Virus record (IMG/VR): IMGVR_UViG_2728369187_000003 | DNA length: 27,316 nucleotides | Strand: one strand, 5' to 3' | Origin: a virus | Lineage: Duplodnaviria; Heunggongvirae; Uroviricota; Caudoviricetes | Shown: positions 1,288 to 22,818 of the stretch, piece by piece | Position numbering within the stretch: position 1 is the first letter of the stretch | Layout of the letters: each line of letters begins with the position of its first letter | Position numbers and translations under genes: made by a program | The notes under the pieces: generated by a model | Seen by the model: only the letters and a program-made list of their open reading frames with translations | Databases searched by the model: none | Told to the model about the DNA's origin: nothing

Positions 1288-3729
1288 TTAAAAATCAGCC
1301 TGACTCGGGATCAGTTTTTGCCAGATAGCTGAAACGTATTTTGCCTGGTAACGAGCGTCATCAAGTGCATTATGGCGCTCACCTTCGAATGGGATAGCAG
1401 TTCTGGCATCGAAGTCTATGGCTTTCCCCAGCTCAACGATTGTGCGTACATCGCGATCGTTGCAGTAGCGCCACGGGCAGGGGATACCCTGTCGTTCGTA
1501 TGAACGGCGTAAAATCACGTTGTCGAAGTTGGCCCCATTACCCCAGACCTGAACAAAAAATTCACCGGAGTTTTCGTCGATAAATTCCCGCAATTGCAGT
1601 AGTGCATCATCTAACGGGATTTCATCGGTCATAATGGCAGACTGCGCTTCACGTGATTGCTTTAGCCACCATTTAATGACGTCACGATCAATGACTCCGC
1701 CAGCAGTATCCAGATCGATGGTCTTGCTAAATTCCGGTCCCATATCTCCGGTTTGTGGATCGAAAAATATTGCGCCTATTGAGATAATCGGGGCATCGGG
1801 ATTTTTTCCCATGGTTTCAAGGTCGATCATCAGATGAATCCCCGCTCTGCTGGTGGATGTGAGCTTATGATGACCATTCACCTTAATTAAGGGATCTGTC
1901 GCCTCGCCAGTTTTATTATCGCTGGCGTGATGCTGATTGCCGCCAGGGTTCTCCTTGTGTGGATGTTCAGCGCCTTCCATTTCCTCCGGATCATTTTCCT
2001 GAACTTCAACCTGATTCTCTTCATCGAATGTTTCCTGGTATGTTGCGTCGCCCATCACCGCGCCACAATCAGGGCAGTTGCCGCCACCGCTCTGACCGCA
2101 GGCGGTGCAGACTTTTTCCGGTTCCTGTTGCGCTACTGGTTCGGATTGTTTCGTTTCTGGCTCGTTTTGTAACGCATTTGGGCTGTTTTGTTCCGCTTTT
2201 TGGTCGTTCCGTTCCGATTCATGCTGGTTCTGGTTCACAGAATCGCGAGTCTGGATCCCCTTGACCCATTTCGGATCATTAGGGTCGCTAATCCCCTCAA
2301 CAAATTCACCACGCGATACAGCAAGTAACTTATCGGCGTCAGGCTGGCTGATATTGGCTGCCTGCATAATTTTGTTTACTTCGTCAGCGGTGACTTTTAC
2401 TTGGTTAGCGGAACTCACCTGCGACTGAGCATCCAGCGACTGCGCGTTCTGGCCATGTTCAGTTGTATCCGGTTCCATTGTTTCAGTTGTTGCCTGTTCA
2501 CCTGCCATTGCGTCAGATGGTTGTGGTTTTTCTTCTTCTGTTTCACGCTCAGTAACCACCTCGCGGTTAATTTCTTCCAGGATATCTTTTTCCGGCGTAT
2601 GCCGGGCAGCTGTGAGAGTTTCCTTGCTGGGGTTCTCGTGATCAGTTTCCGTCAAATAGGCGTTGATATACCCCTGAAGGCGTCCCGGGTAGTGATAAAA
2701 TTCAGAGTGTGCGCTTCGGATAAGTGCAAAAATAGCGGCGCGGGAATAGTCCAGAATACCCGGGGTTGCACGAAGTGCTGCGGACCATTCTTTGAACGGA
2801 CTTTCTTTGTTCAGGACTACTTCTTTTGCGCGACGATAAACGCTGCCCGGAATTTCATAAATATTAAAATCCATCGGAAGTGTGGCTGCTGCAATCTCCA
2901 CATCCAGTGTGTCGAGGGTGTGTACTAAATTCGGATTGCGATCGGTTTTGTTCCCACCGCCAGCATTAGCACCGGAAGCCGTGCGGGTGATGCGTGAAAC
3001 ACGATTTCCTTTCATCCACTCTTTTGTCAGCAGACCCCGATCAGTGTAGTCAGCGTCCAGGTATGCTTCGAAAAAAGCAGTTATTAGTCCCAGGTCTGAA
3101 TTACCAGGATTAGGGAAAACTTTGTCAGTGTCACGAACCAGTTTGTGGAGGTCGCGAATCTCCAGCGAGTCGAGCAGACTGGTTTTATGCGAAATAGCCA
3201 GGGCAGTAACAGCCGGTAGTTCTTCAGCCCGTGCAATGTGTAATGCCTGGAGTTCGTCGCGTGAAACGTGCGTTACTGGTTTTTCGCTGCCGTGTTGAGC
3301 AAGCCAACGAATGGGCAGTTCCTGACCGGAGACAGGCAGAAGCATGCTCTCCTCAATCTCAGTCATGTCTTCGCCGTTGATGTTGGTATTGTCAGTGCTG
3401 GCTGGTTTGTCCTGAACAGAGGGGGAAGGGCCGATAAATGTCATTGTGATGCCATCTTTCCCGCCTTTTTCATAGCGGTTGCAGAATTCAGTATCAAACA
3501 CGCCTTCTGGCGGAAGGTCGTCAACAACGGGCAAATTGACGCGGACGGGTTTTTTAAAGTCGTCTTCATCATAATCGTTGTCATCCATTGCGGTAATGCA
3601 GCGGGAGATTGCAACAGATAATTTTTTTGCTGTAGTCCAGTAAAAACCACCTTTAATTCCTAGGCGTTTTCTTACTTTGTCATTTTTTGCTTCGCAATAT
3701 AGTGCAAATTCTTCTTTATCAGTGCTCAT
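1288..3729 (-). CDS. Large early protein with C-terminal DEDDh (DnaQ-like) 3'-5' exonuclease domain
   Basis: 813-aa ORF; C-terminal region carries Exo I-like DLETMG, Exo II-like GNGANFDNVIL and Exo III-like HNALDDARY motifs; N-terminal half is acidic low-complexity with a CTACGQSGGGNCPDCG zinc-ribbon-like motif; GAGG ribosome-binding site 9 nt upstream of ATG. Confidence 0.7.
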   Translation of the reverse strand: MSTDKEEFALYCEAKNDKVRKRLGIKGGFYWTTAKKLSVAISRCITAMDDNDYDEDDFKKPVRVNLPVVDDLPPEGVFDTEFCNRYEKGGKDGITMTFIGPSPSVQDKPASTDNTNINGEDMTEIEESMLLPVSGQELPIRWLAQHGSEKPVTHVSRDELQALHIARAEELPAVTALAISHKTSLLDSLEIRDLHKLVRDTDKVFPNPGNSDLGLITAFFEAYLDADYTDRGLLTKEWMKGNRVSRITRTASGANAGGGNKTDRNPNLVHTLDTLDVEIAAATLPMDFNIYEIPGSVYRRAKEVVLNKESPFKEWSAALRATPGILDYSRAAIFALIRSAHSEFYHYPGRLQGYINAYLTETDHENPSKETLTAARHTPEKDILEEINREVVTERETEEEKPQPSDAMAGEQATTETMEPDTTEHGQNAQSLDAQSQVSSANQVKVTADEVNKIMQAANISQPDADKLLAVSRGEFVEGISDPNDPKWVKGIQTRDSVNQNQHESERNDQKAEQNSPNALQNEPETKQSEPVAQQEPEKVCTACGQSGGGNCPDCGAVMGDATYQETFDEENQVEVQENDPEEMEGAEHPHKENPGGNQHHASDNKTGEATDPLIKVNGHHKLTSTSRAGIHLMIDLETMGKNPDAPIISIGAIFFDPQTGDMGPEFSKTIDLDTAGGVIDRDVIKWWLKQSREAQSAIMTDEIPLDDALLQLREFIDENSGEFFVQVWGNGANFDNVILRRSYERQGIPCPWRYCNDRDVRTIVELGKAIDFDARTAIPFEGERHNALDDARYQAKYVSAIWQKLIPSQADF

Positions 3730-3822
3730 TATTGGTAAACCTCATCACAGATTTAAGGGTGAACAAATCTCTGCCATTGCTGACATATAAGAATGAAACT
3801 GGATATTTATTACGGTGCTGTT

Positions 3823-4014
3823 TTAAAATCCTGCCGGGATTTCGTTATTATCCTGGTGAATAACTTTATCGACCGGATAACAGTTGCCTGGAATTTTCTG
3901 TTCGGTTGCTGCTGCCATACATTCCTGCATTGTTCTGTGAACACTGACTGCAATATCAACTGGCTCTCCGGAAACAAGAAAAACCGTCAGAATAAGTGCA
4001 AATACTGGATTCAT
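3823..4014 (-). CDS. ydfD: YdfD-like small protein with N-terminal hydrophobic segment (63 aa)
   Basis: Internal Met of the 81-aa track ORF gives MNPVFALILTVFLVSGEPVDIAVSVHRTMQECMAAATEQKIPGNCYPVDKVIHQDNNEIPAGF; its ATG overlaps the dicB stop (ATGA), indicating translational coupling; matches my recollection of Qin YdfD. Confidence 0.6.
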   Translation of the reverse strand: MNPVFALILTVFLVSGEPVDIAVSVHRTMQECMAAATEQKIPGNCYPVDKVIHQDNNEIPAGF

Positions 4015-4199
4015 TGTGCACATCCTTTTGGCATCAGACGTAAACGGGCCAGCATTGAAACAATGCATACTTTATTTAATAACTCCCGTTCGTGTTTTCT
4101 TTTGTTAATGGCATCTTCAGTAAATACAGGATTACTGATAGTGACACCAATTTCAAAACAACCTTCAGACGTATTAACGTTTGGTAATAACNNNNNNNN
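4011..4199 (-). CDS. dicB: Cell division inhibitor DicB (5' end falls inside the N-run)
   Basis: Minus-strand translation of 4011-4191 reads (T)LLPNVNTSEGCFEIGVTISNPVFTEDAINKRKHERELLNKVCIVSMLARLRLMPKGCAQ*, matching E. coli DicB from memory; the first two to three codons lie in the N-run, so the start coordinate is inferred from the 62-aa length. Confidence 0.75.
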   Translation of the reverse strand, partial: XXXLLPNVNTSEGCFEIGVTISNPVFTEDAINKRKHERELLNKVCIVSMLARLRLMPKGCAQ

Positions 4200-4305
4200 N
4201 NNNNNNNNNNNNNNNNNNNNNNNNNNNNNNNNNNNNNNNNNNNNNNNNNNNNNNNNNNNNNNNNNNNNNNNNNNNNNNNNNNNNNNNNNNNNNNNNNNNN
4301 NNNNN
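4192..4305. other. Run of 114 N (assembly gap or masked sequence)
   Basis: Directly visible; covers the dicB start and the position where a dicF-like small RNA would be expected. Confidence 1.
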
Positions 4306-4585
4306 CCGGTGTCCTCAACGGTGAAGGAATAACCCCGCCATACTTACCGCCGCGCCATTTCGCGGAGTGCCACAACCGGAAGCGCACGGTCGACGATAAT
4401 TTAACGACAGGCTATCTATGAACCAGCTACCTCGCCGTGCGCTTTCGCGTTATGGTCTGACTTTTCAGGGAAATATCCTTTCAGTAAACTGTCAGTGCCG
4501 GATGCTCACCCGTGTCCGGCGCACGCACTCCACCTCACCCGTGGAGAACTCCTTAATTACCAACCTTAGCTTCGTTGGTTAGCTA

Positions 4586-4804
4586 TTAACGCGGGTATGT
4601 AATCATTCTGGCAATGCTTAATGCCGCTGCTTTTTCCAGCCTGGTGATATCCTGCTCCAGAGCGGACAGATTTTCAGCCTGCTTAGCCCTGGCTTCATTG
4701 GCCCATTTCAGATCCTGCGCTGCATTAATTTTCTGGCGCATCCACTCATAAAGTTCATCATCGGTATAGTCTGGCGCGATGATGACGGGTTCTCGTTTCT
4801 GCAT
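4586..4804 (-). CDS. ydfC: YdfC-like protein (72 aa)
   Basis: 72-aa ORF MQKREPVIIAPDYTDDELYEWMRQKINAAQ...; position between ydfB and dicB and length fit Qin ydfC as I recall it. Confidence 0.55.
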   Translation of the reverse strand: MQKREPVIIAPDYTDDELYEWMRQKINAAQDLKWANEARAKQAENLSALEQDITRLEKAAALSIARMITYPR

Positions 4805-4833
4805 ACTGATTCCTCGCGGTGCTGCTTCGCTTA

Positions 4834-4962
4834 TCAGCCGTTAGATTTTGCCGAGCTGGAAAGCGCCTGTTTAAACTCACTGAAGCTGAGAGCTTCTTCG
4901 CCTTCGGCAAGGCCTTCGAAGTATTCTTCGTAAGCCTTTTTCATGATTGTGTCGAAATCCAT
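4834..4962 (-). CDS. ydfB: YdfB-like small protein (42 aa), absent from the ORF track
   Basis: Minus-strand ORF MDFDTIMKKAYEEYFEGLAEGEEALSFSEFKQALSSSAKSNG*; ATG lies 1 nt after the ydfA stop; fits the ydfA-ydfB-ydfC order. Confidence 0.5.
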   Translation of the reverse strand: MDFDTIMKKAYEEYFEGLAEGEEALSFSEFKQALSSSAKSNG

Positions 4963-4963
4963 A

Positions 4964-5119
4964 TCACTCACCTGAGTTTCTTTCCAGCCAGCGACGGGCA
5001 CCATTTTCGGTTTTAAACGTTTTGCTTTTGGTATACGTCATCGCGGTGAATGTGCCGTCCTGGTTGGGAAACACGCCGTACACCAGAGATTCGTTGTTGC
5101 CAAGATCGATAGTATCCAT
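4964..5119 (-). CDS. ydfA: YdfA-like DUF1391-type small protein (51 aa)
   Basis: Internal Met of the 78-aa track ORF, preceded by GAGG 4 nt upstream, gives MDTIDLGNNESLVYGVFPNQDGTFTAMTYTKSKTFKTENGARRWLERNSGE; first gene after the PL-like promoter. Confidence 0.6.
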   Translation of the reverse strand: MDTIDLGNNESLVYGVFPNQDGTFTAMTYTKSKTFKTENGARRWLERNSGE

Positions 5120-5298
5120 GTTGACCTCATTTCCCCTTAACGCCGGGGTAGCGGAACAAAAACCTGCTGCATAGTTATTAAAGTTGAACCCTGCCGTCAT
5201 GTTCTTACGCCTCGGGCTGGCTACTTAACCCCTGACCACTGCCTGGTAACTCGAAGTATTGCCCTGCATTCTGTGGGGTGGGGTGAGGGAATGAATGA

Positions 5299-5347
5299 AG
5301 TTTAGAAAAATGAACTTTTCAGGTCAATGTTTTTTTATCAAAACATT
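5299..5347 (-). promoter_or_regulatory. PL-like leftward early promoter with overlapping palindromic operator
   Basis: On the minus strand TTGACC-N17-TAAACT; the palindrome AATGTTTT-N6-AAAACATT (plus 5326-5347) overlaps the -35 element; the same operator core recurs in the cI-cro intergenic region. Confidence 0.45.
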
Positions 5348-5411
5348 TTAAGCAGGCAGCTGTTAAGCCATCACCACGATGGCATACAGTTAATCAAATA
5401 GATGAGGTTGG

Positions 5412-6050
5412 TTAAATATCTTGTTGAATTTTAAAGCATACGCCCAATATGCAAGATAGATCATCCAGCATAATTGAAGGGTAGCGAGGATTCGTGGGGA
5501 CTAAAAGAATATCCGGCCCTTCTATCTCCAGTTTACGAATGACAGGTGTTGTGGTCCCTTTGGGTAAGGCAAGGACAATATTTCCTGGTTGTACGGTTCG
5601 ATCGGGATCAACAAAAACTGTTGAACCATTTGGGATGGAAACTCCCCCACCAGATGTTGACATACTGTCACTCTCTAGAACAACTGCAAAGGTATTGGCC
5701 GGGATTTCTCCGACAAGCTGCACACAAGAGGTTATTGAGGAATTTTTCATATAATCACTCCAGCTTGCTGCCTGCTGAAGTGATAGTAGCGGAACCGTTT
5801 TTATCGGCGGTAAAGATAGATCAAGCGAATCACCTGTATTTAACTCTCCTCCATTAAGAAGCCAATTTTCGTTTACTTTCAATATCTTTGCCAGTGAACT
5901 TATGTAACGCGAGGACGGCGCTCCTCCACCGTTCATCCATTGACTTACGGAGCCTTTTGATGCGCCAGTGGCATTGACAAGGTCTTTGCCTTTCAGGTTT
6001 AGCGCATGCATACGTTGGGTTATGCGTTCAGATATTGTTTGCTTGCTCAT
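5412..6050 (-). CDS. CI-like prophage repressor (N-terminal HTH, C-terminal S24 LexA-like autopeptidase)
   Basis: 212-aa ORF; N-terminal HTH region; C-terminal SDSM...IRKL...LVPTNPRYPSI parallels lambda CI GDSM...FKKL...LQPLNPQYPMI; no ribosome-binding site upstream of the ATG, which overlaps an operator (leaderless, PRM-like). Confidence 0.9.
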   Translation of the reverse strand: MSKQTISERITQRMHALNLKGKDLVNATGASKGSVSQWMNGGGAPSSRYISSLAKILKVNENWLLNGGELNTGDSLDLSLPPIKTVPLLSLQQAASWSDYMKNSSITSCVQLVGEIPANTFAVVLESDSMSTSGGGVSIPNGSTVFVDPDRTVQPGNIVLALPKGTTTPVIRKLEIEGPDILLVPTNPRYPSIMLDDLSCILGVCFKIQQDI

Positions 6051-6113
6051 GTTTTGATTTTAAAACACAGATGGTTTTGTTTCTTGACTTTCTTTGGTTT
6101 TGATTATTAAACT
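6049..6113. promoter_or_regulatory. OR-like operator cluster and PR-like rightward promoter
   Basis: ATGTTTT-N6-AAAACA palindrome at 6049-6067 overlapping the cI start; further GTTTT/AAAAC inverted motifs at 6062-6079 and 6097-6112; TTGACT (6084-6089)-N18-TAAACT (6108-6113) ahead of cro. Confidence 0.5.
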
Positions 6114-6141
6114 TTTGGCGTTCAGTTTTATGGAGCGACTT

Positions 6142-6372
6142 ATGAAAAAATCAGAAGTATTAGGCTATTTTGGCGGAGTTGTTAAAACAGCCGCAGCTCT
6201 AGGAACGTCAAAAACCACAGTCAGCATGTGGGGGGAAGAGGTTCCGTGGAAATGGGCGTTGCTAATTCAGGCAGTCACTGCCGGGGCGCTCAAATATGAG
6301 TTACACATACCGACGGTTGTCATTCCCGGTTCTGATCATAATCCGCCTTCTAACCAAGGGGGGGATTCATGA
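6142..6372 (+). CDS. Cro-like small HTH regulator
   Basis: 76 aa from the ATG at 6142, with GGAG 6 nt upstream; divergent from cI; helix-turn-helix-like segment VVKTAAALGTSKTTVSMW. Confidence 0.7.
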   Translation: MKKSEVLGYFGGVVKTAAALGTSKTTVSMWGEEVPWKWALLIQAVTAGALKYELHIPTVVIPGSDHNPPSNQGGDS

Positions 6373-6794
6373 AAATCAAGCATGAACACATCCGCATGGC
6401 GATGAATGCCTGGGCGCGTCCTGATGGCGAAAAAGTTCCAGCAGCTGGAATAACCCAGGCTTATTTTGAGTTGGGTATGACGTTTCCTGAACTGTATGAC
6501 GACAGCCATCCGGAAGCCCTGGCTCGCAATACCCAGAAAATTTTCCGCTGGGTAGAGAAAGACACCCCTGATGCAGTTGAAAAAATTCAGGCGTTGTTAC
6601 CAGCGATCGAAAAGGCAATGCCACCTTTGCTGGTGGCCAGAATGCGCAGCCACAGTTCAGCTTATTTTCGGGAGCTGGTGGAGACGCGGGAGCGATTGGT
6701 GAGAGACGCTGATGATTTTGTCGCAGTGGCAATCGCCGGTTTCAATCAGATGAACCGTGGTGGCCCGGCAGGAAATGCTGTGGCAGTACATTGA
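6369..6794 (+). CDS. YdaT-family-like protein in the cII position (function unknown)
   Basis: 141-aa ORF whose ATG overlaps the cro stop (ATGA); begins MKIKHEHI, which I recall for YdaT-like proteins that follow Cro-like YdaS; not verified. Confidence 0.45.
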   Translation: MKIKHEHIRMAMNAWARPDGEKVPAAGITQAYFELGMTFPELYDDSHPEALARNTQKIFRWVEKDTPDAVEKIQALLPAIEKAMPPLLVARMRSHSSAYFRELVETRERLVRDADDFVAVAIAGFNQMNRGGPAGNAVAVH

Positions 6795-6865
6795 CTGACA
6801 ATAGCCATATCGAATCGCTTCCGGCAACTCGTGAGTAAAAAGATTCGGTATCAGAAGAGGTGAGT

Positions 6866-7936
6866 ATGGCTAACGCTTGGCTCAGATTATGGCATGACAT
6901 GCCAAATGACCCTAAGTGGCGAACAATTGCCAGGGTGTCAGGGCAGCCAATTGCAACAGTGATGGCAGTGTATATCCACCTCCTGGTGAGCGCGTCACGA
7001 AATGTCACGCGAGGTCACATTGATGTCACGACAGAAGATTTGGCAAGTGCGCTCGACGTGACAGAAGAGGTAATTGATTCAATTTTGCAGACGATGCAGG
7101 GGCGGGTACTTGATGGTGATTTAATCACTGGATGGGAAAAACGCCAGGTTCTTAAAGAGGACAACGGCAATATTTCGCAAACCGCAAAATCTCCTGCAGA
7201 GCGCAAGAGGGCGCAGCGAGAGAGGGAAAGAAAGCGGGAACAAAATGGCGATTGTCACGGCGCGTCACGAAATGTCACGCACATGTCACGACGAGTCACG
7301 ACAGATAAAGATACAGATAAAGATACAGATCAAGAAGATCAAAACACTATGGTCCATGGCGTAAAAAACGCCACGAACCAGGCAGGGGATGTTCAGACCG
7401 TCAATCTTGGTCAGCCAGCAGGCACGACACCGGAAGCCGATTCAGCGTATGCGCTGAAAGCCGATTCGGGCGCTGTGCAGCAGGTGATGACCGCAAGGCC
7501 GGAGCAATCACACCAACTGCAGCAGCCTGAAGCCGATTCCGCCATTCAGCGGGAAGCCGATCGGGTAGTCCCGGAAAACACCGGGCAGCCTGTGGGACGA
7601 GTGGATTATCCGGATGTGTTCGAACAGGTCTGGCGGGAATACCCGTTGCGTGCTGGGGCAAACCCGAAGAAATCCGCTTTCAGTGCTTGGAAGGCCAGAT
7701 TACGCGAGGGGGTGTCACCAGAGGCCATGCTGGATGGCGTGAGGCGTTACGCAAGATACCTTGCGGCTACCGGGAAAACGGGAACGGAATTTGTTCAGCG
7801 AGCAACGACGTTTTTTGGACCGGACCGGAATTTTGAAAACCCCTGGCTGCTCCCGGTAAGCGGCACGAACAACCAGCGTTGTGTGAATCATATTTCTGAA
7901 CCGGATACCGAAATTCCACCGGGCTTCAGGGGGTAA
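6866..7936 (+). CDS. Replication initiator (O-like) with origin iterons inside the coding sequence
   Basis: 356 aa from the ATG at 6866 (GAGG 5 nt upstream); occupies the O position after cro and the cII-like gene; two internal GTCACG iteron arrays and an AT-rich tandem repeat lie inside it. Confidence 0.65.
   Translation: MANAWLRLWHDMPNDPKWRTIARVSGQPIATVMAVYIHLLVSASRNVTRGHIDVTTEDLASALDVTEEVIDSILQTMQGRVLDGDLITGWEKRQVLKEDNGNISQTAKSPAERKRAQRERERKREQNGDCHGASRNVTHMSRRVTTDKDTDKDTDQEDQNTMVHGVKNATNQAGDVQTVNLGQPAGTTPEADSAYALKADSGAVQQVMTARPEQSHQLQQPEADSAIQREADRVVPENTGQPVGRVDYPDVFEQVWREYPLRAGANPKKSAFSAWKARLREGVSPEAMLDGVRRYARYLAATGKTGTEFVQRATTFFGPDRNFENPWLLPVSGTNNQRCVNHISEPDTEIPPGFRG
6991..7030. repeat. 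Iteron array 1: four GTCAC(G/A) repeats at roughly 10-bp spacing
   Basis: GTCACG at 6994, 7004 and 7025, GTCACA at 7014; the first 21 nt are identical to the start of array 2. Confidence 0.7.
7251..7330. repeat. Iteron array 2 (five GTCACG repeats) followed by an AT-rich tandem repeat; candidate origin of replication
   Basis: GTCACG at 7254, 7264, 7274, 7285 and 7295, then gataaagataca repeated about 2.5 times at 7302-7330; the architecture parallels ori-lambda inside gene O. Confidence 0.65.
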
Positions 7937-7976
7937 GTGTTGATTTCTGGTCATGAGGTAATTTTCAGGAGGACTT

Positions 7977-8399
7977 GTGGCAAAAGTTTTTACACAAGAA
8001 GAGCGAGAAAAAATTAAAGGGCAGGTTGTTGAACTCGTACGCCAGAGTGGGCGTGAGACGTTACGGCAACTGGAAGTCAAAACAGGTGCGACAAGATATC
8101 TGATGAGCGTTCTCGCAAGAGAGCTGGTTGCCAGCGGCGATGTATACAACTCTGGTTACGGGTTATTCCCGTCTGAACAGGCGCGTAAGGACTGGCAAAA
8201 TGCCCGTAAAAAGCTCTCAAGGGCAAAGCTGAAGAAACCATCTGCGGTTGATCCGGACCTTATCTGGTCATTACCTGACGGAGAAATACGTCGCTACGAC
8301 AGGCGTCAGAACATAATCTGTCGCGAGTGCCGGAAGAGTGAAGTTATGCAGCGCATATTGTCGTTTTATCAGGGGGATGTTCGGTATTTATTGAAGTGA
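7977..8399 (+). CDS. Hypothetical protein (140 aa) downstream of the replication initiator
   Basis: GTG start with AGGAGG 4 nt upstream; no recognisable helicase-loader features; last gene before the AT-rich island. Confidence 0.4.
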   Translation: MAKVFTQEEREKIKGQVVELVRQSGRETLRQLEVKTGATRYLMSVLARELVASGDVYNSGYGLFPSEQARKDWQNARKKLSRAKLKKPSAVDPDLIWSLPDGEIRRYDRRQNIICRECRKSEVMQRILSFYQGDVRYLLK

Positions 8400-8684
8400 C
8401 GAGATTAAAGTGCATTAGTTCAGATGCAAATTGACATTTTGTGGCACAGGGTAGAGCTAGCGTGGTTGTCCGCTTTGTGTCAAGAGAGGACGTTCATCCA
8501 TAACTAATTGCTGATCAATACTCAGCAGCATTATGCCCATGTCGCTTTTATTTCACTTTCACTAATGATTGATTTTGGTTCTAGTAGAAGACATAATATT
8601 AGAATATGTATTTGCGTAAGAAATAATTAGTTTCCAATGCATTGGTTTAGTAGAGTGTTTAATAACATCAAGAGGTAGTTTTGG

Positions 8685-9218
8685 ATGACAACCTGGGTGG
8701 AAGTTGTTGATACGGCTGTGAAGATTGGATTTGGTGGTATAATAACGCTGACAGGTACATTTATTATTTCAAAAATGAATCACAAACATGAATTTGATAA
8801 AGATAAAAGTCGTCGCTATTATGATTCATTAGAATCTGTAAGCACTCAAATTGAGGATATGACACATATATCCTTACGCTATTGGGCTTTGATAATTGAA
8901 TGGGTTAGAAATAAGGAACAAAAGGGATTGGATCTTACCAGAGAAAGGCAAGAGGAGTTAAATAAAACAAAATTAGATTTATTTGACAATTTTAAAAGCT
9001 TGACAGTTGCAGAGTCGAAGCTTTTGCTTTTAGGTTTAACTGACACATCAGTTGCTTTAAGAGACTACGGTGATTATTTAAAAGCAATGCGGAGAAATTA
9101 TTATGATGGCAAACCTGATATTAAGGAGTCAGATCTTGAAAATGTAAGGGTTACGTTACTTTACAAACGTAAAGTCCTGTTTGATTTTTTGTCTAGGGAT
9201 TATAAAAAAGGAATATAG
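8685..9218 (+). CDS. Hypothetical membrane-anchored protein (177 aa), island gene A
   Basis: AT-rich codon usage; one N-terminal hydrophobic segment (VKIGFGGIITLTGTFIISKM) followed by a charged, probably helical region; AGAGG upstream. Confidence 0.55.
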   Translation: MTTWVEVVDTAVKIGFGGIITLTGTFIISKMNHKHEFDKDKSRRYYDSLESVSTQIEDMTHISLRYWALIIEWVRNKEQKGLDLTRERQEELNKTKLDLFDNFKSLTVAESKLLLLGLTDTSVALRDYGDYLKAMRRNYYDGKPDIKESDLENVRVTLLYKRKVLFDFLSRDYKKGI

Positions 9219-9595
9219 AATCATAGGTTTTAAGTTAAGGGATGCTATTGACTTCCTTTTCAGCAACCTAGCTTCTAGTTATGATGATAATTATAAATCT
9301 GAAGCTTAGTTCATCATAGTCATATTGGATTAGTAATGATATTTACTCGATGCTTCTAAGTTGTAATGAAAATGCTTACTATACGCTCATTGAAAACCTC
9401 ATGCCTCTCCCTTGATCGCTTGTGGCTGGAACGGACAAAACCACATTTTATATTCATTTTTGCTAGTGGTTTAATATAGCACTATATGCTTTTTATTTTG
9501 CTATGATTGATGTCTTAAGAATTCTATGAACATCTAAAATAGGTGATTAACATAACATCGTTGTTTTATAACAAGTAGAATAAGGAGTCAGTTTT

Positions 9596-10519
9596 ATGCC
9601 ATCACTAGATACTATAGTTTTAAACCTCCTAAGAGGGGCTGTTCCTGAGAATGCTGATGAACTTTGTCAGACCTGGAAGAGCTATAAACACACGGTCGAA
9701 CTTGCAGAGGATGCCCTAGGATCAACAATGAATGCAACTAGTAGGCGCATCGAGTTTGACTCTAAAACTATCGATTTCTTTTGGTTATTTGGGTTTAGTA
9801 CATGGTTTACGATTGAGACATATGCTCCAGCCCTAGTAAAAGCATGCTTACTAGGTGTGACGTTAGAGTCGGCTTTAGAATCTGATGAAGAACGTGGCCA
9901 ATTTGAACTAAATTATAAACAGCATTTGTATATTTCAAAGTCTTTGCTAAGCGTTGCGAATACGGCTGATATTACATGGCCTCAAGATATTCCTTTTCCA
10001 ACAGATGCGCGAGATAGTTTGAATAATATTCAAGAACAGGCTGTTTTTGATCTAGTAGCATTAGCATTGTCTTTTTCTATACTTCATGAGTATAAACATG
10101 TTCAAGCACGAGCCGAAGAAAAAAAACATGAAAATCCCCAAGAGAAGGATGAAGAAGAGTTAGCCTGTGACTCTTGGGCTCGTGAATATATAACTAAGGG
10201 CGTCGGAGTCTATGCTAAAAAAGCTGGGCATACCTATGAAGAGGTCATGCAAAAACGAGCAATGGGGATAACACTTGCCGCCTTTACTATACACGCTTTA
10301 ACATCAGATATCGATAAATGGGGTGGTGAAGAGTATCCATCTATAGCAGTAAGGATTCAAACAATGATAGGGGGGTACAACCTTTCAGATTCATCGCCCT
10401 TCTGGTGTTTTACAGCTTGTCTTCTCATCGCGGTGATGAGACAGGAAAACCGTAAGCTTGATTATAAAGCTACAACATATAAAGAGTTTGTTACTAGGCT
10501 CCTTTCGGAATTACACTAA
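9596..10519 (+). CDS. HExxH zinc-metallopeptidase-like protein (307 aa), island gene B
   Basis: TAAGGAG ribosome-binding site 8 nt upstream; HEYKH motif at residues 164-168 within FSILHEYKHVQ; a hairpin terminator follows. Confidence 0.6.
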   Translation: MPSLDTIVLNLLRGAVPENADELCQTWKSYKHTVELAEDALGSTMNATSRRIEFDSKTIDFFWLFGFSTWFTIETYAPALVKACLLGVTLESALESDEERGQFELNYKQHLYISKSLLSVANTADITWPQDIPFPTDARDSLNNIQEQAVFDLVALALSFSILHEYKHVQARAEEKKHENPQEKDEEELACDSWAREYITKGVGVYAKKAGHTYEEVMQKRAMGITLAAFTIHALTSDIDKWGGEEYPSIAVRIQTMIGGYNLSDSSPFWCFTACLLIAVMRQENRKLDYKATTYKEFVTRLLSELH

Positions 10520-10535
10520 ATAATTTTGACATAAT

Positions 10536-10572
10536 AATAGACAGATTAGAATGATATCTGTCTATTATTTGC
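10536..10572 (+). terminator. Hairpin terminator after island gene B
   Basis: Perfect 11-bp inverted repeat AATAGACAGAT / ATCTGTCTATT with a 9-nt loop, followed by a T-rich tail (ATTATTT). Confidence 0.5.
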
Positions 10573-10980
10573 ATTAGTCGTGACTTGATCTGACACATGG
10601 CTTTGAAAGATTAAGAGTTACTGGTATTGATATGGGGCCGAAGTGTTATACAATACAAGAGGTAATTCTCATATTCCATACTAACAATCCTATCATCAAA
10701 CACAACGCCGGTTACTTAAGGTGGCTGAGGAACTCAGCAACGTATCCGAAGCCAGCAAAGCCATGGTCCTTTCGCAGTAAGTTGCGTAAATAAGGTGTTT
10801 TTATCCCTTGAAGCATTCTACAAAGCCAGCTCCTCGCTCAAACAGACGTGCCTGTTCACCAATCTGCCCGCTTGGTATCAAGGGACGCCAGTAACGCGAT
10901 ACAGGCGATACAGGGTGAATTCCTTCCTTAACTGCCCTCACATCATCTTTAATAATAGTTTACCCTGATATAACGGATGA

Positions 10981-12360
10981 TCAGAAGTCCATCAGGTCAT
11001 CGAATTTCTGAGGTGGCTCTTGTTTTCGAACACTATCTCCCTGATGAATCTCCGTCTCACTTGTTTGGTATTTTACACCAGTAATTTTATGATAAGTCAT
11101 ACTGTTGGTTTTCAACAGTAGTGCATCATTTTTGTCATGCGAGGATGAAAATGAACCCATATGTCTCGGTTTTATTTGTTCCTCAACTATTAACTGAATT
11201 TCCGGAACAAAAGCATACTGGTCATCTTCGATGTGTTCATACATCTCAACATTATATCGGCGAGATTTATCTGCGGCATGCCTGACGCCGGAAGACTTAT
11301 TAAACAGAACGACATTATATCCTATCTCAGCATCCTCACCGTTGGCATCTACCTGGGTAGATTTAAAGCTGACACCATCAAGCTTAAATTTATTTCGGTC
11401 ACCTAGGTAATCGGCAACCACTTGGGTGATGAGGTAATCACTGTCCTGCCTTTTTCCAAAAGTAGGAAGCGTCAACTTACGGGAAAGCGTACTGAAAAAA
11501 ATCGCGCGCTCACTGGTTTTGCGAGTCTGAGGATCAAATTTACTACCTGAGCCGAAACTAATCGAGTCAAGGGCAGAAATGTCCAGCACTTTTAGCTCGC
11601 GTAACGGTACAAAACAGGCCGTTACTACAATACTGCCGACGGGCGGCCTTACTTCAGCAATTGCCAAATTCACTGAGGTTGCACCGTAAAATACTGAAAT
11701 CCCCTGTGCGTTCATACGGCCCGACCGAGCCAAAGTTGATGGGGGAGGTCCAAAATTTTTCTCGGGCTGCTCCAAGGCTTGCTTTACTTCCTCTTGGTCC
11801 TCAAAGACCCTTGCACGAAAAAGATGAACCTCATCAGTCAGAGTTTTTATCGGTGAATTACTGTCTCTGTTTTTTAGTTTATCGATATCACTGAAAAGTG
11901 AATCCAGGAAATCATTAACTTCACGGTTAAAATATCGTGTTTCTTTCATAAGGGAGTCAGTGGCTTTACTCCAGGTATGCGCAAGCTCTCCGCTATAGTG
12001 ATTTATGTGCCGATAAACAAACCCATCATTATACCGGATGTAGTCATAATCGTTATGCGGATTATATTCATCACAAAGAAATTCATAAATATCTTCAGCT
12101 ACGTCCCATTCGACGCCCAGTTCTCCGCAGATGACATCCTGCGCGCTATCACCGCGCCCGGAATCATAGATATCCTCATACATATCATAGTAGTACTCAA
12201 AAACCTCATTCATCATCTTGAGAATATATTTGAGGTGGATGTTTTTACGCTTCCTTTTGCAGTAAGAGCAAATCCGAACATTATTTCCGGTTTTTATTAT
12301 ATGCTGCATGACATATTTATCGTTCACGCATTTATGACAAATATACTTATCTTTCCACAT
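10981..12360 (-). CDS. Zinc-ribbon plus RES-like domain protein (459 aa), island gene C
   Basis: N-terminal CHKC...CSYC zinc-ribbon-like motif; central SGRMNAQGISVFYGATSVNLAIAEV fits the R-x9-Y-x10-E spacing I recall for RES-domain NAD-targeting toxins; convergent with gene B. Confidence 0.55.
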   Translation of the reverse strand: MWKDKYICHKCVNDKYVMQHIIKTGNNVRICSYCKRKRKNIHLKYILKMMNEVFEYYYDMYEDIYDSGRGDSAQDVICGELGVEWDVAEDIYEFLCDEYNPHNDYDYIRYNDGFVYRHINHYSGELAHTWSKATDSLMKETRYFNREVNDFLDSLFSDIDKLKNRDSNSPIKTLTDEVHLFRARVFEDQEEVKQALEQPEKNFGPPPSTLARSGRMNAQGISVFYGATSVNLAIAEVRPPVGSIVVTACFVPLRELKVLDISALDSISFGSGSKFDPQTRKTSERAIFFSTLSRKLTLPTFGKRQDSDYLITQVVADYLGDRNKFKLDGVSFKSTQVDANGEDAEIGYNVVLFNKSSGVRHAADKSRRYNVEMYEHIEDDQYAFVPEIQLIVEEQIKPRHMGSFSSSHDKNDALLLKTNSMTYHKITGVKYQTSETEIHQGDSVRKQEPPQKFDDLMDF

Positions 12361-12427
12361 TTTTTACCCACTCATCATCAGCTGATACAAGGTCACTTTC
12401 CTGCAATTTTATAATTAAATCAAGCAT
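12347..12427 (-). CDS. Candidate 26-aa upstream ORF overlapping the start of island gene C
   Basis: GGAGGGGG ribosome-binding site 8 nt upstream of the ATG; MLDLIIKLQESDLVSADDEWVKNVER*; its stop overlaps the gene C ATG. Confidence 0.3.
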   Translation of the reverse strand: MLDLIIKLQESDLVSADDEWVKNVER

Positions 12428-12706
12428 AAAAACCCCCTCCTCACCTCAATGCTTTCAGTGTAAAAATAATTAGTAATACGCTGTACTGGTAATAATTATG
12501 AACTTCCTCTTCTCGCTCAAAGCGGACTAGAAAGTTAGCTTGCGTCGGACTTGGCGTATTTAAAGAAGTGCTGGTGGTGACTGGTTGTTGTGTTCCATTT
12601 CTACAGAACAAAATCACAGAAACTATACCCAATAGTTGTATTGAATCACTGACGAGACAGCCTCATATTTATCAGGACTGGTGTACGTCCAATACAGGAG
12701 GTTGTG

Positions 12707-12796
12707 GTGCTGGTTCTCAAATGTGCGCTGGCTATTGCTGCTGTAATGGCAATTTATTGCCTTGCTGTTGTTCTTATGGATCGCCTTTCTGATTGA
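12707..12796 (+). CDS. Candidate 29-aa hydrophobic peptide
   Basis: AGGAGG 5 nt upstream of a GTG start; MLVLKCALAIAAVMAIYCLAVVLMDRLSD*; a single predicted transmembrane helix with charged ends. Confidence 0.35.
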   Translation: MLVLKCALAIAAVMAIYCLAVVLMDRLSD

Positions 12797-12897
12797 TTTT
12801 ATATTGGCGAGGTGACGTGAGTTAAGTAGAATTGCTGCGGGTGCTTGAGGCTATCTGCCTCAGGCATGAACACCAAAGGCAGATAGAGAAAAGCCCC

Positions 12898-14773
12898 AGT
12901 TAACATTACGCGTCCTGCAAGACGCTTAACATTAATCTGAGGCCAATTTCATGCTAGACACATGTAGGTTAGCCTCTTACGTGCCGAAAGGCAAGGAGAA
13001 GCAGGCTAGTGTTAACACCAAGCTGTAATGTCCCCTTTGAACCATTCTAAAATGTCCCCAGACAATTCTCTGGGGGATTTTTCATGATCAAAGAGACTGT
13101 TACGATGAGTCATAAGGAACTCCACCGACTTCAGATTATTCAGGAGTCAATTAATCGACATATTACTCAGGAACAAGCTGCGGCACGCATTGGCATTTCT
13201 ATTCGGCAGGTTAAACGTCTGGTGCAACGGTATAGAAATGAAGGGCCTTCTGGTCTGGTTTCCCACCGACGTGGAAAGCGTCCTAATAATTCCTTTTCTA
13301 CTGAATTCAGAGCAACAGTAATTTCACTCCTCAAAGGCCGTTACGCTGATTTTGGACCTACGTTTGCGTGCGAAAAATTGCGCGAGATACACGGTTTATC
13401 TTTATCCGTTGAAACTCTCAGAAAGTGGATGATAGAAGAGGGGTTATGGCGTGAACGCCGTCGTAAAATTGCCCGTATATATCAACGCCGCATGCGACGA
13501 CCATCTTACGGTGAACTGATCCAGATTGATGGCTCACCTCATGACTGGTTTGAAAATCGAGGCCCCAGATGTACACTGATCGTTTTCATTGATGATGCCA
13601 CCAGTGCGTTGATGGCGTTGCGTTTTGTGCCTGCTGAAACAACCCGGGCTTACATGGAAACCCTCCGGGGTTACCTTAATGATCATGGCGTACCGCTCGC
13701 TCTCTACTCTGATAGACACAGTATATTCAGGGTAAATAACCCAGAGCGGGAAGGTGAGCTGACCCAGTTCACTCGTGCGATAAAGACACTGGGCATCGAG
13801 CCAATCCATGCCAACAGCCCGCAGGCAAAAGGGCGGGTAGAGCGCGCCAATCAGACACTACAGGACAGGCTGGTCAAAGAAATGCGGCTTCAGAATATCA
13901 GTGATATTGAAACAGCAAATGCATGGTTGCCGACCTTTATTGAAGCCTATAACAACCGGTTCGCTACGTCGCCTCGTACTACTGATAATGCTCATCTTGA
14001 TGAGCACCATTCTGAAGAGGAACTGGGTTATATCTTCAGCCTACAGGCGAAGCGCGTTCTGTCTAAAAATCTCACTTTCCAGTACAAAAGCAGTGCGTTT
14101 CAGGTACGCAGTGAGGGCCGGGGATATCGACTTAGGCATTCGGTTGTTACTGTATGCGAGAACTTTGACGGTGAAATTAACGTTCTGTATGACGGGAAAG
14201 CGCTGGGCTGGGAAAAGTATGTTGATGGCCCGGAGCCTATACCACTGGATGATGAAAAGAGTGTCCATGAACGAGTGGATAATGCCCGTATTGATTTACG
14301 CTCAAAATACTATGTTAAACCTAAAGCTGACCATCCCTGGCTTACGCGCCGAACGCAAAGTCATCAGCAAGTTAAGCCCCCGAAGTTACCTAAAAAGAAG
14401 CCTGATCCCGATAAAAAAGATTGAAACCAAGATCGATTCGGTTGAGTGCATATCCATTCATAGGGTAGATTCTTAAGTCGCGTTTCTGGTGTTCATTTTC
14501 GGGTGGTTTGTTACTTGTTTTACCGGGGATATGCCAGAAACGCGCTGAGTCAGTCTGGGCGGTGCGCGTAATGAGGCGTTATGGTAAATAGCCTATGCTA
14601 ATGTCCGCTAAGAGCAAGAAGCGGAAGTTGGCAGTTTTGTGGACTGTCCCCACAAAAGTGACTACAGAAATAGTTGCAATTCATAATTGATCATGGGTTG
14701 TCAGTTAAACTCGTGGCGATTTAAATAGACTAATTGGGAGTGCGTCCATTACTTATATCTTGTAATGTTAACT
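12898..14773 (+). mobile_element. Insertion sequence carrying a DDE transposase (ends uncertain)
   Basis: The transposase gene is flanked by a 12-bp inverted match, AGTTAACATTAC at 12898-12909 and its reverse complement at 14762-14773; hairpin-forming inverted repeats sit inside both arms; no direct repeats found. Confidence 0.4.
13084..14424 (+). CDS. DDE transposase with N-terminal HTH (IS481/ISNCY-like, family not resolved)
   Basis: 446-aa ORF; N-terminal HTH-like region (ITQEQAAARIGISIRQVKRLV), central integrase-core-like region (IQIDGSPHDW...LIVFIDDATS...) and a basic C-terminal tail. Confidence 0.75.
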   Translation: MIKETVTMSHKELHRLQIIQESINRHITQEQAAARIGISIRQVKRLVQRYRNEGPSGLVSHRRGKRPNNSFSTEFRATVISLLKGRYADFGPTFACEKLREIHGLSLSVETLRKWMIEEGLWRERRRKIARIYQRRMRRPSYGELIQIDGSPHDWFENRGPRCTLIVFIDDATSALMALRFVPAETTRAYMETLRGYLNDHGVPLALYSDRHSIFRVNNPEREGELTQFTRAIKTLGIEPIHANSPQAKGRVERANQTLQDRLVKEMRLQNISDIETANAWLPTFIEAYNNRFATSPRTTDNAHLDEHHSEEELGYIFSLQAKRVLSKNLTFQYKSSAFQVRSEGRGYRLRHSVVTVCENFDGEINVLYDGKALGWEKYVDGPEPIPLDDEKSVHERVDNARIDLRSKYYVKPKADHPWLTRRTQSHQQVKPPKLPKKKPDPDKKD

Positions 14774-14820
14774 ATCAGAAATGATACAAAGATAATATGT
14801 CTTTAAAGAAAAGGCTGATG

Positions 14821-14846
14821 GCGAAAAGTGGCCCGATGAGGGCCAC
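14821..14846 (-). terminator. Rho-independent terminator downstream of flxA
   Basis: GTGGCCC-GATGA-GGGCCAC hairpin followed on the minus strand by TTTTCGCC. Confidence 0.55.
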
Positions 14847-14860
14847 AATACGGCTGTCAC

Positions 14861-15193
14861 TTAGACGTAAATATCAATGGTGCCAGCGGTATTTGTATCG
14901 TCTTTTTTCTCTTCTTTTTTATCAGGCTGAACTGTCGCGTCTTCATTCTTTTTCTCTGCCTGCTGCCTTAACAACTGCTCCAGTTGAGCCCAGAGGCTTT
15001 CAATTTGCTTCTGTACCAATGCAGCCATTTCTTTTTTCTGCTGTGTCGTCATCCCCTCTTCCGATGAGATTTTCACAAGCTTTTCAGTCAGCACCTGAAT
15101 TTGTCTTGTGATTTTGGCTATTTCTGATGTTCCTTCCGGGGCGGAGTTGTTTGAAATAACGGTTGAGGTATTTCCCTGAATTGTGACAGACAT
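14861..15193 (-). CDS. flxA: FlxA-like protein (110 aa)
   Basis: 110-aa ORF; AAGGAG ribosome-binding site; preceded by a near-consensus sigma-28 promoter; matches the Qin flxA position and length from memory. Confidence 0.7.
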   Translation of the reverse strand: MSVTIQGNTSTVISNNSAPEGTSEIAKITRQIQVLTEKLVKISSEEGMTTQQKKEMAALVQKQIESLWAQLEQLLRQQAEKKNEDATVQPDKKEEKKDDTNTAGTIDIYV

Positions 15194-15216
15194 AGATTTC
15201 TCCTTTTAAAAAAGCA

Positions 15217-15243
15217 CTATCGGCATGCACAAAAAAATCTTTA
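15217..15243 (-). promoter_or_regulatory. Sigma-28 (FliA) type promoter for flxA
   Basis: Minus strand reads TAAAGATT-N-GCCGATAG with a 15-nt spacer between TAAA and GCCGATA, against the consensus TAAA-N15-GCCGATAA. Confidence 0.6.
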
Positions 15244-15395
15244 ATCGTATTTCTTGTGTCATTAATTGTTTGATGTTCAGATTGTTTTCCTCGCGGGCTG
15301 GCGCGCCTCAGAAAGTAAAGCTTGTTGACAGGGGTAAACGTTCGGCAATAATTTTCTGCCGCATGCGGGTGTTGCATAAAACGTGTTACGTTCCT

Positions 15396-15701
15396 TTATC
15401 GACAGGTCAGGTCACCGCTCACCCGCCGACGAGAAAGCAACACTGACATGCTAAAGCAAAAAATAGATGAATAAGTTGAGTTGTGCATATGTAGCCTGAC
15501 CGTCACAAAGTATATGGTGTCTGTACCAGTAAGATGATGGCCGGACTCTTTAAAAACGAGCTGACCTGCACAATACAGGATGGACTTAGCAATGGCTGCT
15601 CCTGGCAGAAAGCGGACAGTGATCACCGTTCTTACGACTACTTTCTGACTTCCTTCGTGACTTGCCCTAAGCATGTTGTAGTGCGATACTTGTAATGACA
15701 T
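15396..15701 (-). CDS. YdfV-like hypothetical ORF (101 aa)
   Basis: Length and position between relB and flxA match the K-12 ydfV annotation as I recall it; no other support. Confidence 0.3.
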   Translation of the reverse strand: MSLQVSHYNMLRASHEGSQKVVVRTVITVRFLPGAAIAKSILYCAGQLVFKESGHHLTGTDTIYFVTVRLHMHNSTYSSIFCFSMSVLLSRRRVSGDLTCR

Positions 15702-15714
15702 TTGTAATTACAAG
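15662..15714 (+). promoter_or_regulatory. relBE promoter and operator
   Basis: TTGCCC-N17-GATACT followed by the palindromic CTTGTAATGACATTTGTAATTACAAG, overlapping the -10 element and just upstream of the relB ribosome-binding site. Confidence 0.6.
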
Positions 15715-15725
15715 AGGTGTAAGAC

Positions 15726-15965
15726 ATGGGTAGCATTAACCTGCGTATTGACGATGAACTTAAAGCGCGTTCTTACGCCGCGCTTGAAAAAATGGGTGTA
15801 ACTCCTTCTGAAGCGCTTCGTCTCATGCTCGAGTATATCGCTGACAATGAACGCTTGCCGTTCAAACAGACACTCCTGAGTGATGAAGATGCTGAACTTG
15901 TGGAGATAGTGAAAGAACGGCTTCGTAATCCTAAGCCAGTACGTGTGACGCTGGATGAACTCTGA
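15726..15965 (+). CDS. relB: RelB antitoxin
   Basis: 79 aa MGSINLRIDDELKARSYAALEKMGVTPSEALRLMLEYIADNERLPFKQ..., near-identical to E. coli RelB from memory; stop overlaps the relE start. Confidence 0.95.
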   Translation: MGSINLRIDDELKARSYAALEKMGVTPSEALRLMLEYIADNERLPFKQTLLSDEDAELVEIVKERLRNPKPVRVTLDEL

Positions 15966-16252
15966 TGGCGTATTTTCTGGATTTTGACGAGCGGGCACTA
16001 AAGGAATGGCGAAAGCTGGGCTCGACGGTACGTGAACAGTTGAAAAAGAAGCTGGTTGAAGTACTTGAGTCACCCCGGATTGAAGCAAACAAGCTCCGTG
16101 GTATGCCTGATTGTTACAAGATTAAGCTCCGGTCTTCAGGCTATCGCCTTGTATACCAGGTTATAGACGAGAAAGTTGTCGTTTTCGTGATTTCTGTTGG
16201 GAAAAGAGAACGCTCGGAAGTATATAGCGAGGCGGTCAAACGCATTCTCTGA
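15965..16252 (+). CDS. relE: RelE mRNA interferase toxin
   Basis: 95 aa MAYFLDFDERALKEWRKLGSTVREQLKKKLVEVLESPRIEANKLRGMPDCYKIKLRSSGYRLVYQVIDEKVVVFVISVGKRE..., matching RelE from memory. Confidence 0.95.
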   Translation: MAYFLDFDERALKEWRKLGSTVREQLKKKLVEVLESPRIEANKLRGMPDCYKIKLRSSGYRLVYQVIDEKVVVFVISVGKRERSEVYSEAVKRIL

Positions 16253-16323
16253 ACCAAAGCATGACATCTCTGTTTCGCACCGAAGGTGACACTTCTGCTT
16301 TGCGTTGACAGGAGAAGCAGGCT

Positions 16324-16473
16324 ATGAAGCAGCAAAAGGCGATGTTAATCGCCCTGATCGTCATCTGTTNNNNNNNNNNNNNNNNNNNNNNNNNNNNNNN
16401 NNNNNNNNNNNNNNNNNNNNNNNNNNNNNNNNNNNNNNNNNNNNNNNNNNNNNNNNNNNNNNNNNNNNNNNNN
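16324..16473 (+). CDS. hokD: Hok-family toxin (hokD/relF-like), interrupted by an N-run
   Basis: Begins MKQQKAMLIALIVIC, the Hok N-terminus, then runs into the N-run; the true 3' end is not visible and the 66-aa track ORF is an artifact of the gap. Confidence 0.7.
16370..16473. other. Run of 104 N (assembly gap or masked sequence)
   Basis: Directly visible; lies inside the hok-like gene. Confidence 1.
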
Positions 16474-19633: not shown

Positions 19634-19933
19634 AAAAATTCCTTAATACTGATAACTTGGCGCACTATACACACGTTCCTGAAGAAAGCTATAGTTTTTT
19701 GATGGGGTTGAAGATGGCTGGATGTCTAAAATAAACATTGCTTCATATGTTCAACTATGCGTTAATGATTGCGTCGGTTTGAAGAACAGACGATATACGA
19801 AGTAGTTTACTAAAGCAGTTCTCATTTCAGGTGTTATTCACTTATTCCTTCTTTGAGTCTCTCCAATTAAGTACGAAGTCGTTTCTGTTATGCAAACCAT
19901 TTATGCCGAAAGGCTCAAGTTAAGGAATGTAGA

Positions 19934-20149
19934 ATGTCAAATAAAATGACTGGTTTAGTAAAATGGTTTAACGCTGATAAAGGTTTCGGCTTTATTTCTC
20001 CTGTTGATGGTAGTAAAGATGTGTTTGTGCATTTTTCTGCGATTCAGAATGATAATTATCGAACCTTATTTGAAGGTCAAAAGGTTACCTTCTCTATAGA
20101 GAGTGGTGCTAAAGGTCCTGCAGCAGCAAATGTCATCATTACTGATTAA
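19934..20149 (+). CDS. cspB: Cold-shock protein, CspB-like
   Basis: 71 aa [67 protein letters not shown]... Confidence 0.85.
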
Positions 20150-20430
20150 AATTCATCGCTCGTCTGTATACGATAACGAAGAAGGCTGATGCCTGAGTAG
20201 AGATACGGACAGAGTAGTGAATATTGGATCTCTTTAATAAAAAGTAAGGAGGTCCAATACATGAAACAATGGCCAGCATATTTGGCAAAATCTTAATCAG
20301 GAAAAGTATGCTAACCATTGTGGTGAAGTGCAGGTTTGCTGCATGAATAGTTTCACAGCAGAAGCTAACTGCTGGCATCGCAAAACAAAGTGCGTAAGTG
20401 GATGACTCCCACAAAAAGCACCACAATCTC

Positions 20431-22456: not shown

Positions 22457-22818
22457 GGTAATATTAAATCGGAACATTTACATCGCGGAATGTAAAATTT
22501 AAATAAAAAGGACTCTTCCATGAGCCAAAATTCCTGAAATCTTAAGGGTAAGATAAAAGGTCTTAATCAGAATGACACGTTTTATTAATAAATAAAGCTA
22601 TTCTTTCATTGCTGTGTTTTTCTTTACAAAAGTAATCCTTGCTATGGGTGGTTAATCATGCGTTAATGGTGTTCTGGTTTGTTACAAATTTATCTGAAGC
22701 AGTCATTGTTATAATTTTATTATTTGTACCTCTTGAGATTTCCTTGTTGGTTTTTCTCTCTGATATTTTTTTTCGGACCATTCTGCCCAAGGGCTAATTT
22801 CTTCAAAAGGTAATAATT

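Follow-up and report, generated by a model that had tools for sequence, protein, structure and literature searches.

The 27,316-nt viral sequence analysed here (the window) carries at 9596-10519, on the + strand, a gene for a 307-residue protein that sequence comparisons support as a zinc metalloprotease of the Lit (peptidase U49) family. By analogy with Lit of prophage e14, we propose, with a probability of about 0.7, that this Lit-like protein is a cytoplasmic zinc protease that works as a single-gene, phage-triggered abortive-infection (phage-exclusion) system. Lit is a textbook case of abortive infection, known from one protein (e14 Lit) and one trigger (T4 Gol). e14 Lit, an HExxH zinc protease, is at first latent: once gp23, the major capsid protein of T4, has bound domains II and III of EF-Tu through its Gol region, Lit cuts EF-Tu at Gly59-Ile60, and this cleavage halts all translation late in T4 infection (PMC3014915; PMC9712102). 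The gene described here represents another branch of this small family, one that is more widespread; its product can be modelled with confidence and it sits in a compact, easily cloned cassette. Work on this branch would reveal if cleavage of EF-Tu and sensing of a capsid protein are family-wide properties or a peculiarity of e14 Lit.

The reading frame opens with an ATG at 9596 and its stop codon ends at 10519, so that the coordinates and the length given by the first-pass annotation of this DNA stand. The strong ribosome-binding site also noted there can be read directly from the DNA as AAGGAG at 9582-9587 (+), 8 nt before the ATG; it is kept in the copy of the gene found in Enterobacter and degenerate in the Citrobacter copy (both described below). 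The 11-nt sequence TAAGGAGTCAG is found twice, in direct orientation and without mismatch: at 9122-9132, within the coding sequence of an upstream gene for a 177-residue protein, and at 9581-9591, in the region of this ribosome-binding site; the repetition is probably due to chance. A perfect inverted repeat of 14 bp, its arms separated by a loop of 9 nt, begins 14 nt beyond the stop codon (10533-10546/10556-10569, +). The predicted hairpin has a dG of -16.7 kcal/mol and a z-score of -3.9 against shuffled sequences; the cassettes of Enterobacter and Citrobacter both retain its 3' arm. The gene had been credited with a terminator of its own: the hairpin is certainly present, but a scan for consensus terminators did not call it. 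Because its stem is AT-rich, its loop is 9 nt long and its U-rich tail is short, a terminator role for the Lit-like gene is plausible on sequence grounds and falls short of proof. Since the hairpin also faces a convergent gene, such a terminator might be bidirectional.

Three independent profiles place the protein in the Lit family, which agrees with the Lit-like reading first proposed. Pfam Peptidase_U49 (PF10463) matched residues 96-237 with 30.5 bits (gathering cutoff 23.9), the PADLOC Lit model matched residues 15-306 (E = 1.3e-18; profile positions 18-285 of 290) and NCBIfam NF007238, "phage exclusion protein Lit", matched residues 7-305 (E = 2e-54; profile positions 11-302 of 309). Moreover, the protein is identical to RefSeq WP_021575733.1, named 'phage exclusion protein Lit family protein'. 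Family membership had thus already been recognised by RefSeq and PADLOC, and as annotation it is routine. The NF007238 score of 184.7 bits nevertheless lies below the equivalog cutoff of 274, which explains why the PGAP name goes no further than 'Lit family protein'. When aligned by BLASTP with Lit of E. coli K-12, the protein was colinear over 270 residues (spanning residues 48-306) with 20% identity (E = 4e-7), and its HEYKH motif fell on HEISH at residues 160-164 of K-12 Lit, close to residue 160 as the first-pass annotation had put it. Given this identity and the sub-equivalog score, the protein is, as judged from its sequence, not an orthologue of e14 Lit, so that EF-Tu cleavage and a Gol-type trigger would be extrapolations in its case.

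A word-indexed search returned 159 relatives in Alpha-, Beta- and Gammaproteobacteria, most of them 307 residues long and 50-59% identical; PF10463 was precomputed on all of the 120 homologues listed among these 159. An exhaustive search of 1.84 billion proteins gave 383 representatives at 50% identity, indicating that the family is small yet diverse. In the literature we found no experimental test of any member of this branch, and for Bradyrhizobium, a genus that harbours the clade, the one paper that names a U49 peptidase gives annotation and expression data only.

We next examined conservation in an alignment of 121 relatives with identities down to 22%. P17, E18, H164, E165, H168, E188, C191, D192, R221 and R253 were invariant in this set. 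HEYKH, the HExxH zinc-binding and catalytic motif (H164-E165-Y-K-H168; codons at 10085-10099, +), is present in one copy at residues 164-168, as first described; it is found in the translation, which includes ALALSFSILHEYKHVQ. It is followed, most commonly 15 residues further on, by E-x-x-[CASG]-[DN], a combination that recurs in 234 of 234 full-length relatives. The corresponding segment here, E187-E188-L-A-C191-D192 (codons at 10154-10171, +), lies on the helix that follows the HExxH helix, and by analogy with gluzincins E188 is a candidate third zinc ligand. Taken by itself, a single HExxH carries little weight as evidence: the composition of this protein leads one to expect about 0.02 of them, and the long open frames of the window hold one in about 10,000 residues. 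Together with the profile matches, its invariance among all full-length relatives takes the motif far beyond chance. Homology to a non-catalytic family, or a HExxH that varied among homologues, had been named as the observations that would overturn the Lit-like reading; the Lit/U49 family is catalytic and the motif is invariant.

The gene evolves under purifying selection (dN/dS of 0.27-0.35 against the Enterobacter and Citrobacter copies). An AlphaFold2 model, a prediction that the first-pass annotation had called for, was of high confidence (pLDDT 97.1) and contains a zincin core nearest to the M48/M56 proteases; the predicted structure thus has a zincin/gluzincin fold. HEYKH lies inside a predicted helix (145-178), and E187-D192 inside another (184-200). 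Likeness to the M48/M56 gluzincins (BepA, ZMPSTE24, the BlaR1 sensor protease) does not extend to sequence, in which no similarity was detectable even by profile search, and residues 1-120 and 240-307 are, unlike these proteases, specific to the Lit family. No member of the family has a solved structure: in sequence searches of the PDB neither the protein alone nor a profile of 121 sequences found a match even at E <= 10, and Foldseek found no significant one among predicted structures of viral proteins. The Kyte-Doolittle maximum of 1.47 indicates that the protein is not an integral membrane protein. All together, intact and invariant motifs are best explained by a protein that is predicted to be catalytically competent.

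A prophage-borne protein with these motifs might instead be a regulatory protease of the ImmA/IrrE type that cleaves a repressor for induction. Indeed, the spacing HExxH...E-x-x-[AC]-[DN] resembles that of ImmA/IrrE-type metalloproteases. However, of the peptidase families that the first-pass annotation had named for a profile search, U49/Lit was matched, as described above, and Peptidase_M78/ImmA gave no Pfam match even at E <= 1. Neither the window nor 72 related loci contain an adjacent HTH repressor partner, the gene lies in a cargo slot outside the immunity region, and Lit-like genes are also carried by plasmids and by defence islands that are not part of a phage. Such a role is thus highly unlikely, mainly because both the M78 match and the HTH partner are lacking.

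How the Lit-like protein would act can be outlined by analogy with e14 Lit. The protease would be made constitutively and kept latent. Once a sensitive phage infects the cell, one of its abundant late proteins, most plausibly that of the major capsid, would create a substrate complex; the protease would then cut an essential translation factor, most plausibly within the switch-I loop of EF-Tu, translation would stop, and the infected cell would die or stall ahead of phage release. Latency, phage trigger, EF-Tu substrate and exclusion phenotype are all transferred here from e14 Lit. This logic is the best supported one in view of the intact active site, the conserved non-catalytic residues, the carriage by a prophage and the defence context.

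Substrate or trigger could nevertheless differ, given the ~20% identity to the only characterised member of the family and the score below the equivalog cutoff. With the same fold and the same role in defence, the protease could cut a substrate other than EF-Tu, or be activated by a trigger that is not a capsid peptide of the T4 type. In favour of another specificity, e14 Lit stands apart from all 269 relatives retrieved, none of which is more than ~28% identical to it, and the clade of the Lit-like protein is commonest in Alphaproteobacteria. Moreover, the Lit-like gene evolves faster than its 177-residue neighbour (dN/dS of 0.3 vs 0.12), which would be expected of a protein in contact with phage products. 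On the other hand, many residues are common to the aligned set and e14 Lit: the HExxH, E187/E188/D192/A195, K220-R221-A222, W128-P129, P133, P135, P248 and R253, and P17, E18 and R221 are likewise common to the clade and e14 Lit. The non-catalytic residues among them (P17, E18, W128-P129, P133, P135, R221, P248 and R253), invariant or nearly so across the family, fit a conserved universal substrate such as EF-Tu, and no positive evidence points to any alternative substrate. We therefore regard a different specificity as a real possibility, though the less probable case, and retain the e14-type mechanism as the preferred reading.

The genomic setting of the gene is that of an E. coli prophage. 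Positions 8400-12700 (4.3 kb) are 100% identical to E. coli strain KV7, and most of the window to the left of 13008 is ~99% or better identical to this strain. The Lit-like gene lies inside a Qin/Rac-like lambdoid prophage inserted at tRNA-Ser beside mtfA, in a slot between DUF977, a gene of the replication region, and sok/hokD. The flanks of this slot (8400-8684 and 12361-12838 in the window) enclose a variable content: of the E. coli genomes that match the flanks alone, some have in the same place a HAD hydrolase and a NUDIX hydrolase, or hypothetical proteins. The 4.3-kb query was matched in some part, flanks or RES gene (see below), by 1,704 E. coli genomes, and the Lit-like allele is rare, being present in 4 of 5,426 complete E. 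coli genomes. The best explanation is that the gene is accessory cargo (a 'moron') of an E. coli lambdoid prophage.

The convergent gene on the 3' side (10981-12360, - strand) encodes a 459-residue RES-domain protein, annotated in RefSeq as 'RES family NAD+ phosphorylase'. Its HEPN/RES N-terminal domain match remained below threshold (21.1 bits, cutoff 27.4), and no antitoxin-like gene adjoins it. The first-pass annotation had mentioned an adjoining putative NAD-targeting effector as part of the context of the Lit-like gene; the RES-family neighbour is indeed there, but the functional link that this implied is unsupported. Other E. coli genomes have the RES gene and lack the Lit cassette (~97% identity, among the matches listed), and the gene is absent beside the closest Lit-like relatives, which are in other genera. 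A functional link between the two was thus rejected.

In contrast to the RES gene, the gene immediately upstream moves together with the Lit-like gene. It encodes a 177-residue helical-bundle protein (8685-9218, +), found as a constant companion in Enterobacteriaceae only, and is separated from the Lit-like gene by an AT-rich spacer of 377 bp (9219-9595, +). To delimit the mobile unit, we compared the window by blastn with three elements from other genera: a P2-like prophage of Enterobacter, a lambdoid prophage of Citrobacter and an AlpA/DUF927 element of Klebsiella. Similarity to each of them began at 8485-8489; it ended at 10643 in Citrobacter and Klebsiella and at 10847 in Enterobacter. A cassette of 2.16 kb (8485-10643), consisting of an upstream region, the 177-residue gene, the spacer, the Lit-like gene and the hairpin, therefore shares its left border across four unrelated mobile elements, those of E. 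coli, Enterobacter, Citrobacter and Klebsiella. This cassette is a new detail of the present analysis. The borders carry no terminal direct or inverted repeats, and a transposon-like cassette was rejected on this ground. The Enterobacter copy of the Lit-like gene, which follows Ogr/Delta in its P2-like prophage, is 88% identical, and the Citrobacter copy 79%; in these two copies and in that of Klebsiella, the 177-residue gene is found ~400 bp upstream of the Lit-like gene. A promoter-like site (TTGATT and CATAAT 17 nt apart, 8569-8597, +), recognised by its match to the consensus at 9 of 12 positions, lies in an upstream block conserved across the three aligned cassettes, and weak promoter-like sites occur in the spacer region at 9257-9285 and 9552-9581. 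The spacer can be aligned among cassettes and is less conserved than either gene; it contains no significant hairpin and no terminator (folding z-scores from -1.0 to +1.4).

The 177-residue protein belongs to no known family. Its predicted structure (pLDDT 90) comprises a long hydrophobic N-terminal helix and three further helices, and matches generic four-helix bundles only. YmfE, the membrane-protein neighbour of e14 lit, was considered as its counterpart and shows no similarity to it. The two genes could form a two-gene system on one transcript unit, in which the 177-residue protein would be a membrane-anchored sensor, a regulator, an inhibitor or an effector activated by the protease. Consistent with this, both genes lie in one 2.16-kb unit whose left border is constant, both are under purifying selection (dN/dS of 0.10-0.14 for the 177-residue gene), and the sole strong hairpin comes after the protease gene, the spacer being free of any. 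The nearest homologues outside the cassette also precede other defence-like genes, with different genes following at a similar distance: in Aeromonas (L100, 4836-5570) a 244-residue AbiGi-like protein (Pfam, 27.2 bits, cutoff 22.4) and in Salmonella (L096-L098, 4931-5476) a 181-residue protein that appears PD-(D/E)xK-like by eye only.

However, the family of the 177-residue protein is wider than the pairing. It forms 68 clusters across Gammaproteobacteria, and at ~60 other loci it is followed by 43 unrelated downstream genes and never by a Lit-like one; the pairing is confined to 177-residue proteins at least ~88% identical. Conversely, the 177-residue gene is absent from all 72 loci of the Lit-like clade, from the surroundings of a 67%-identical relative that is solitary in a P2-like prophage next to an Mrr-type restriction gene, and from the neighbourhoods of plasmid-borne Lit-family genes and of e14 lit. 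The spacer of 377 bp is also long for an operon. Across the phylogenetic range of the two families, co-occurrence is thus seen in the Enterobacteriaceae cassettes only. Since the pairing ends outside this group, we regard the two genes as a lineage-specific unit whose members are mobilised together; and because neither gene accompanies the other beyond it, the protease is probably autonomous. A joint system of the two proteins accordingly appears doubtful, and a single-gene protease is the reading that we prefer. We give a similarly low chance to a broader set of departures from the e14 scheme: a so far unrecognised two-component Abi module in which the 177-residue protein, anchored by its N terminus, would gate or localise the protease or be cleaved by it, a 177-residue protein that would serve as a reusable upstream partner of interchangeable defence enzymes (the Lit-like protease, the AbiGi-like protein and a possible nuclease), or a Lit with another trigger or substrate. 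If true, either the two-component or the other-trigger reading would extend the 30-year-old Lit paradigm past T4 and e14.

The 72 genome loci of the clade revealed no universal neighbour or common partner gene. In about one third of them, a co-directional block lies directly upstream of the Lit-like gene. Its order is a protein of 184-345 residues, a 308-residue PD-T7-5-like protein and, as the last gene of the block, a 470-residue PD-T7-1 (PADLOC, E = 3e-85), then the Lit-like gene and downstream genes; these encode a T5orf172/GIY-YIG protein and a 172-residue protein, or at some loci SIR2 (PDC-S65). The arrangement spans many genera of Alpha-, Beta- and Gammaproteobacteria (L007-L032, L039 and L048-L059; ~2500-8000 in each locus), and looks like a mobile multi-gene defence islet. 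The PD-T7-1-like block, present upstream in 33 of the 72 loci, was rejected as an obligate partner: it is absent from the window, and PD-T7-1 has its own PADLOC model. Other neighbours in the clade loci include AbiEii, the SIR2 protein (PDC-S65), the T5orf172/GIY-YIG protein and a STAND-like NTPase. The carriers of the relatives are mobile elements, namely P2-like and lambdoid prophages, a P4-like element and plasmids; Lit-family genes ~30% identical to the one studied here are solitary on conjugative plasmids. This consistent setting in mobile elements and defence islands supports a stand-alone role in defence.

Compared with known systems, the Lit-like protein is closest in kind to e14 Lit (E. 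coli K-12 b1139; MEROPS U49; PF10463). Both are single-domain, prophage-borne proteins of ~300 residues, with the HExxH at nearly the same place (160-164 in e14 Lit, 164-168 here) and with the downstream EE..x.D..A motif, KRA, WP..P.P, P248 and R253 in common. Unlike e14 Lit, the Lit-like protein belongs to a separate and better-populated branch, its gene occupies a lambdoid cargo slot, and its 177-residue neighbour is without a counterpart at e14. The Lit-family proteins of Klebsiella, Citrobacter and Salmonella conjugative plasmids (such as WP_023316418.1) resemble it in family, length and RefSeq-style name, and their genes, though solitary, lie beside other defence-like genes; they differ in being plasmid-borne, and with an identity of only ~30% they form a third branch. 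Farther away, CapRel-SJ46 and PifA are capsid-sensing abortive-infection systems (PMC9712102). The likeness to them would be one of principle, a single protein, encoded by a prophage or plasmid, that responds to a major capsid protein by shutting translation down; there is no homology, and proteolysis contrasts with tRNA pyrophosphorylation.

Other features of the window deserve mention. Next to the cargo slot, the sok antitoxin RNA was found at 12839-13008 (Rfam, 112.8 bits). Right after it, at 13009-16324, comes an insert of 3,301 bp that is absent in KV7. A 15-bp direct duplication, AGGAGAAGCAGGCTA, flanks the insert, which lies just before the start codon of hokD and carries a 446-residue transposase with an HTH and an integrase core (13084-14424) as well as several small ORFs; the insert probably uncouples hokD from its leader. 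Runs of N are present at 4192-4305, 16370-16473 and 25306-25430, the second of which masks most of hokD; the Lit-like gene is untouched by them. Finally, the Rfam cspA thermoregulator is matched over its full length twice on the + strand, at 19773-20165 (158.8 bits) and at 22673-23058 (112.8 bits), which implies two prophage-borne cold-shock-protein genes with 5' leaders.
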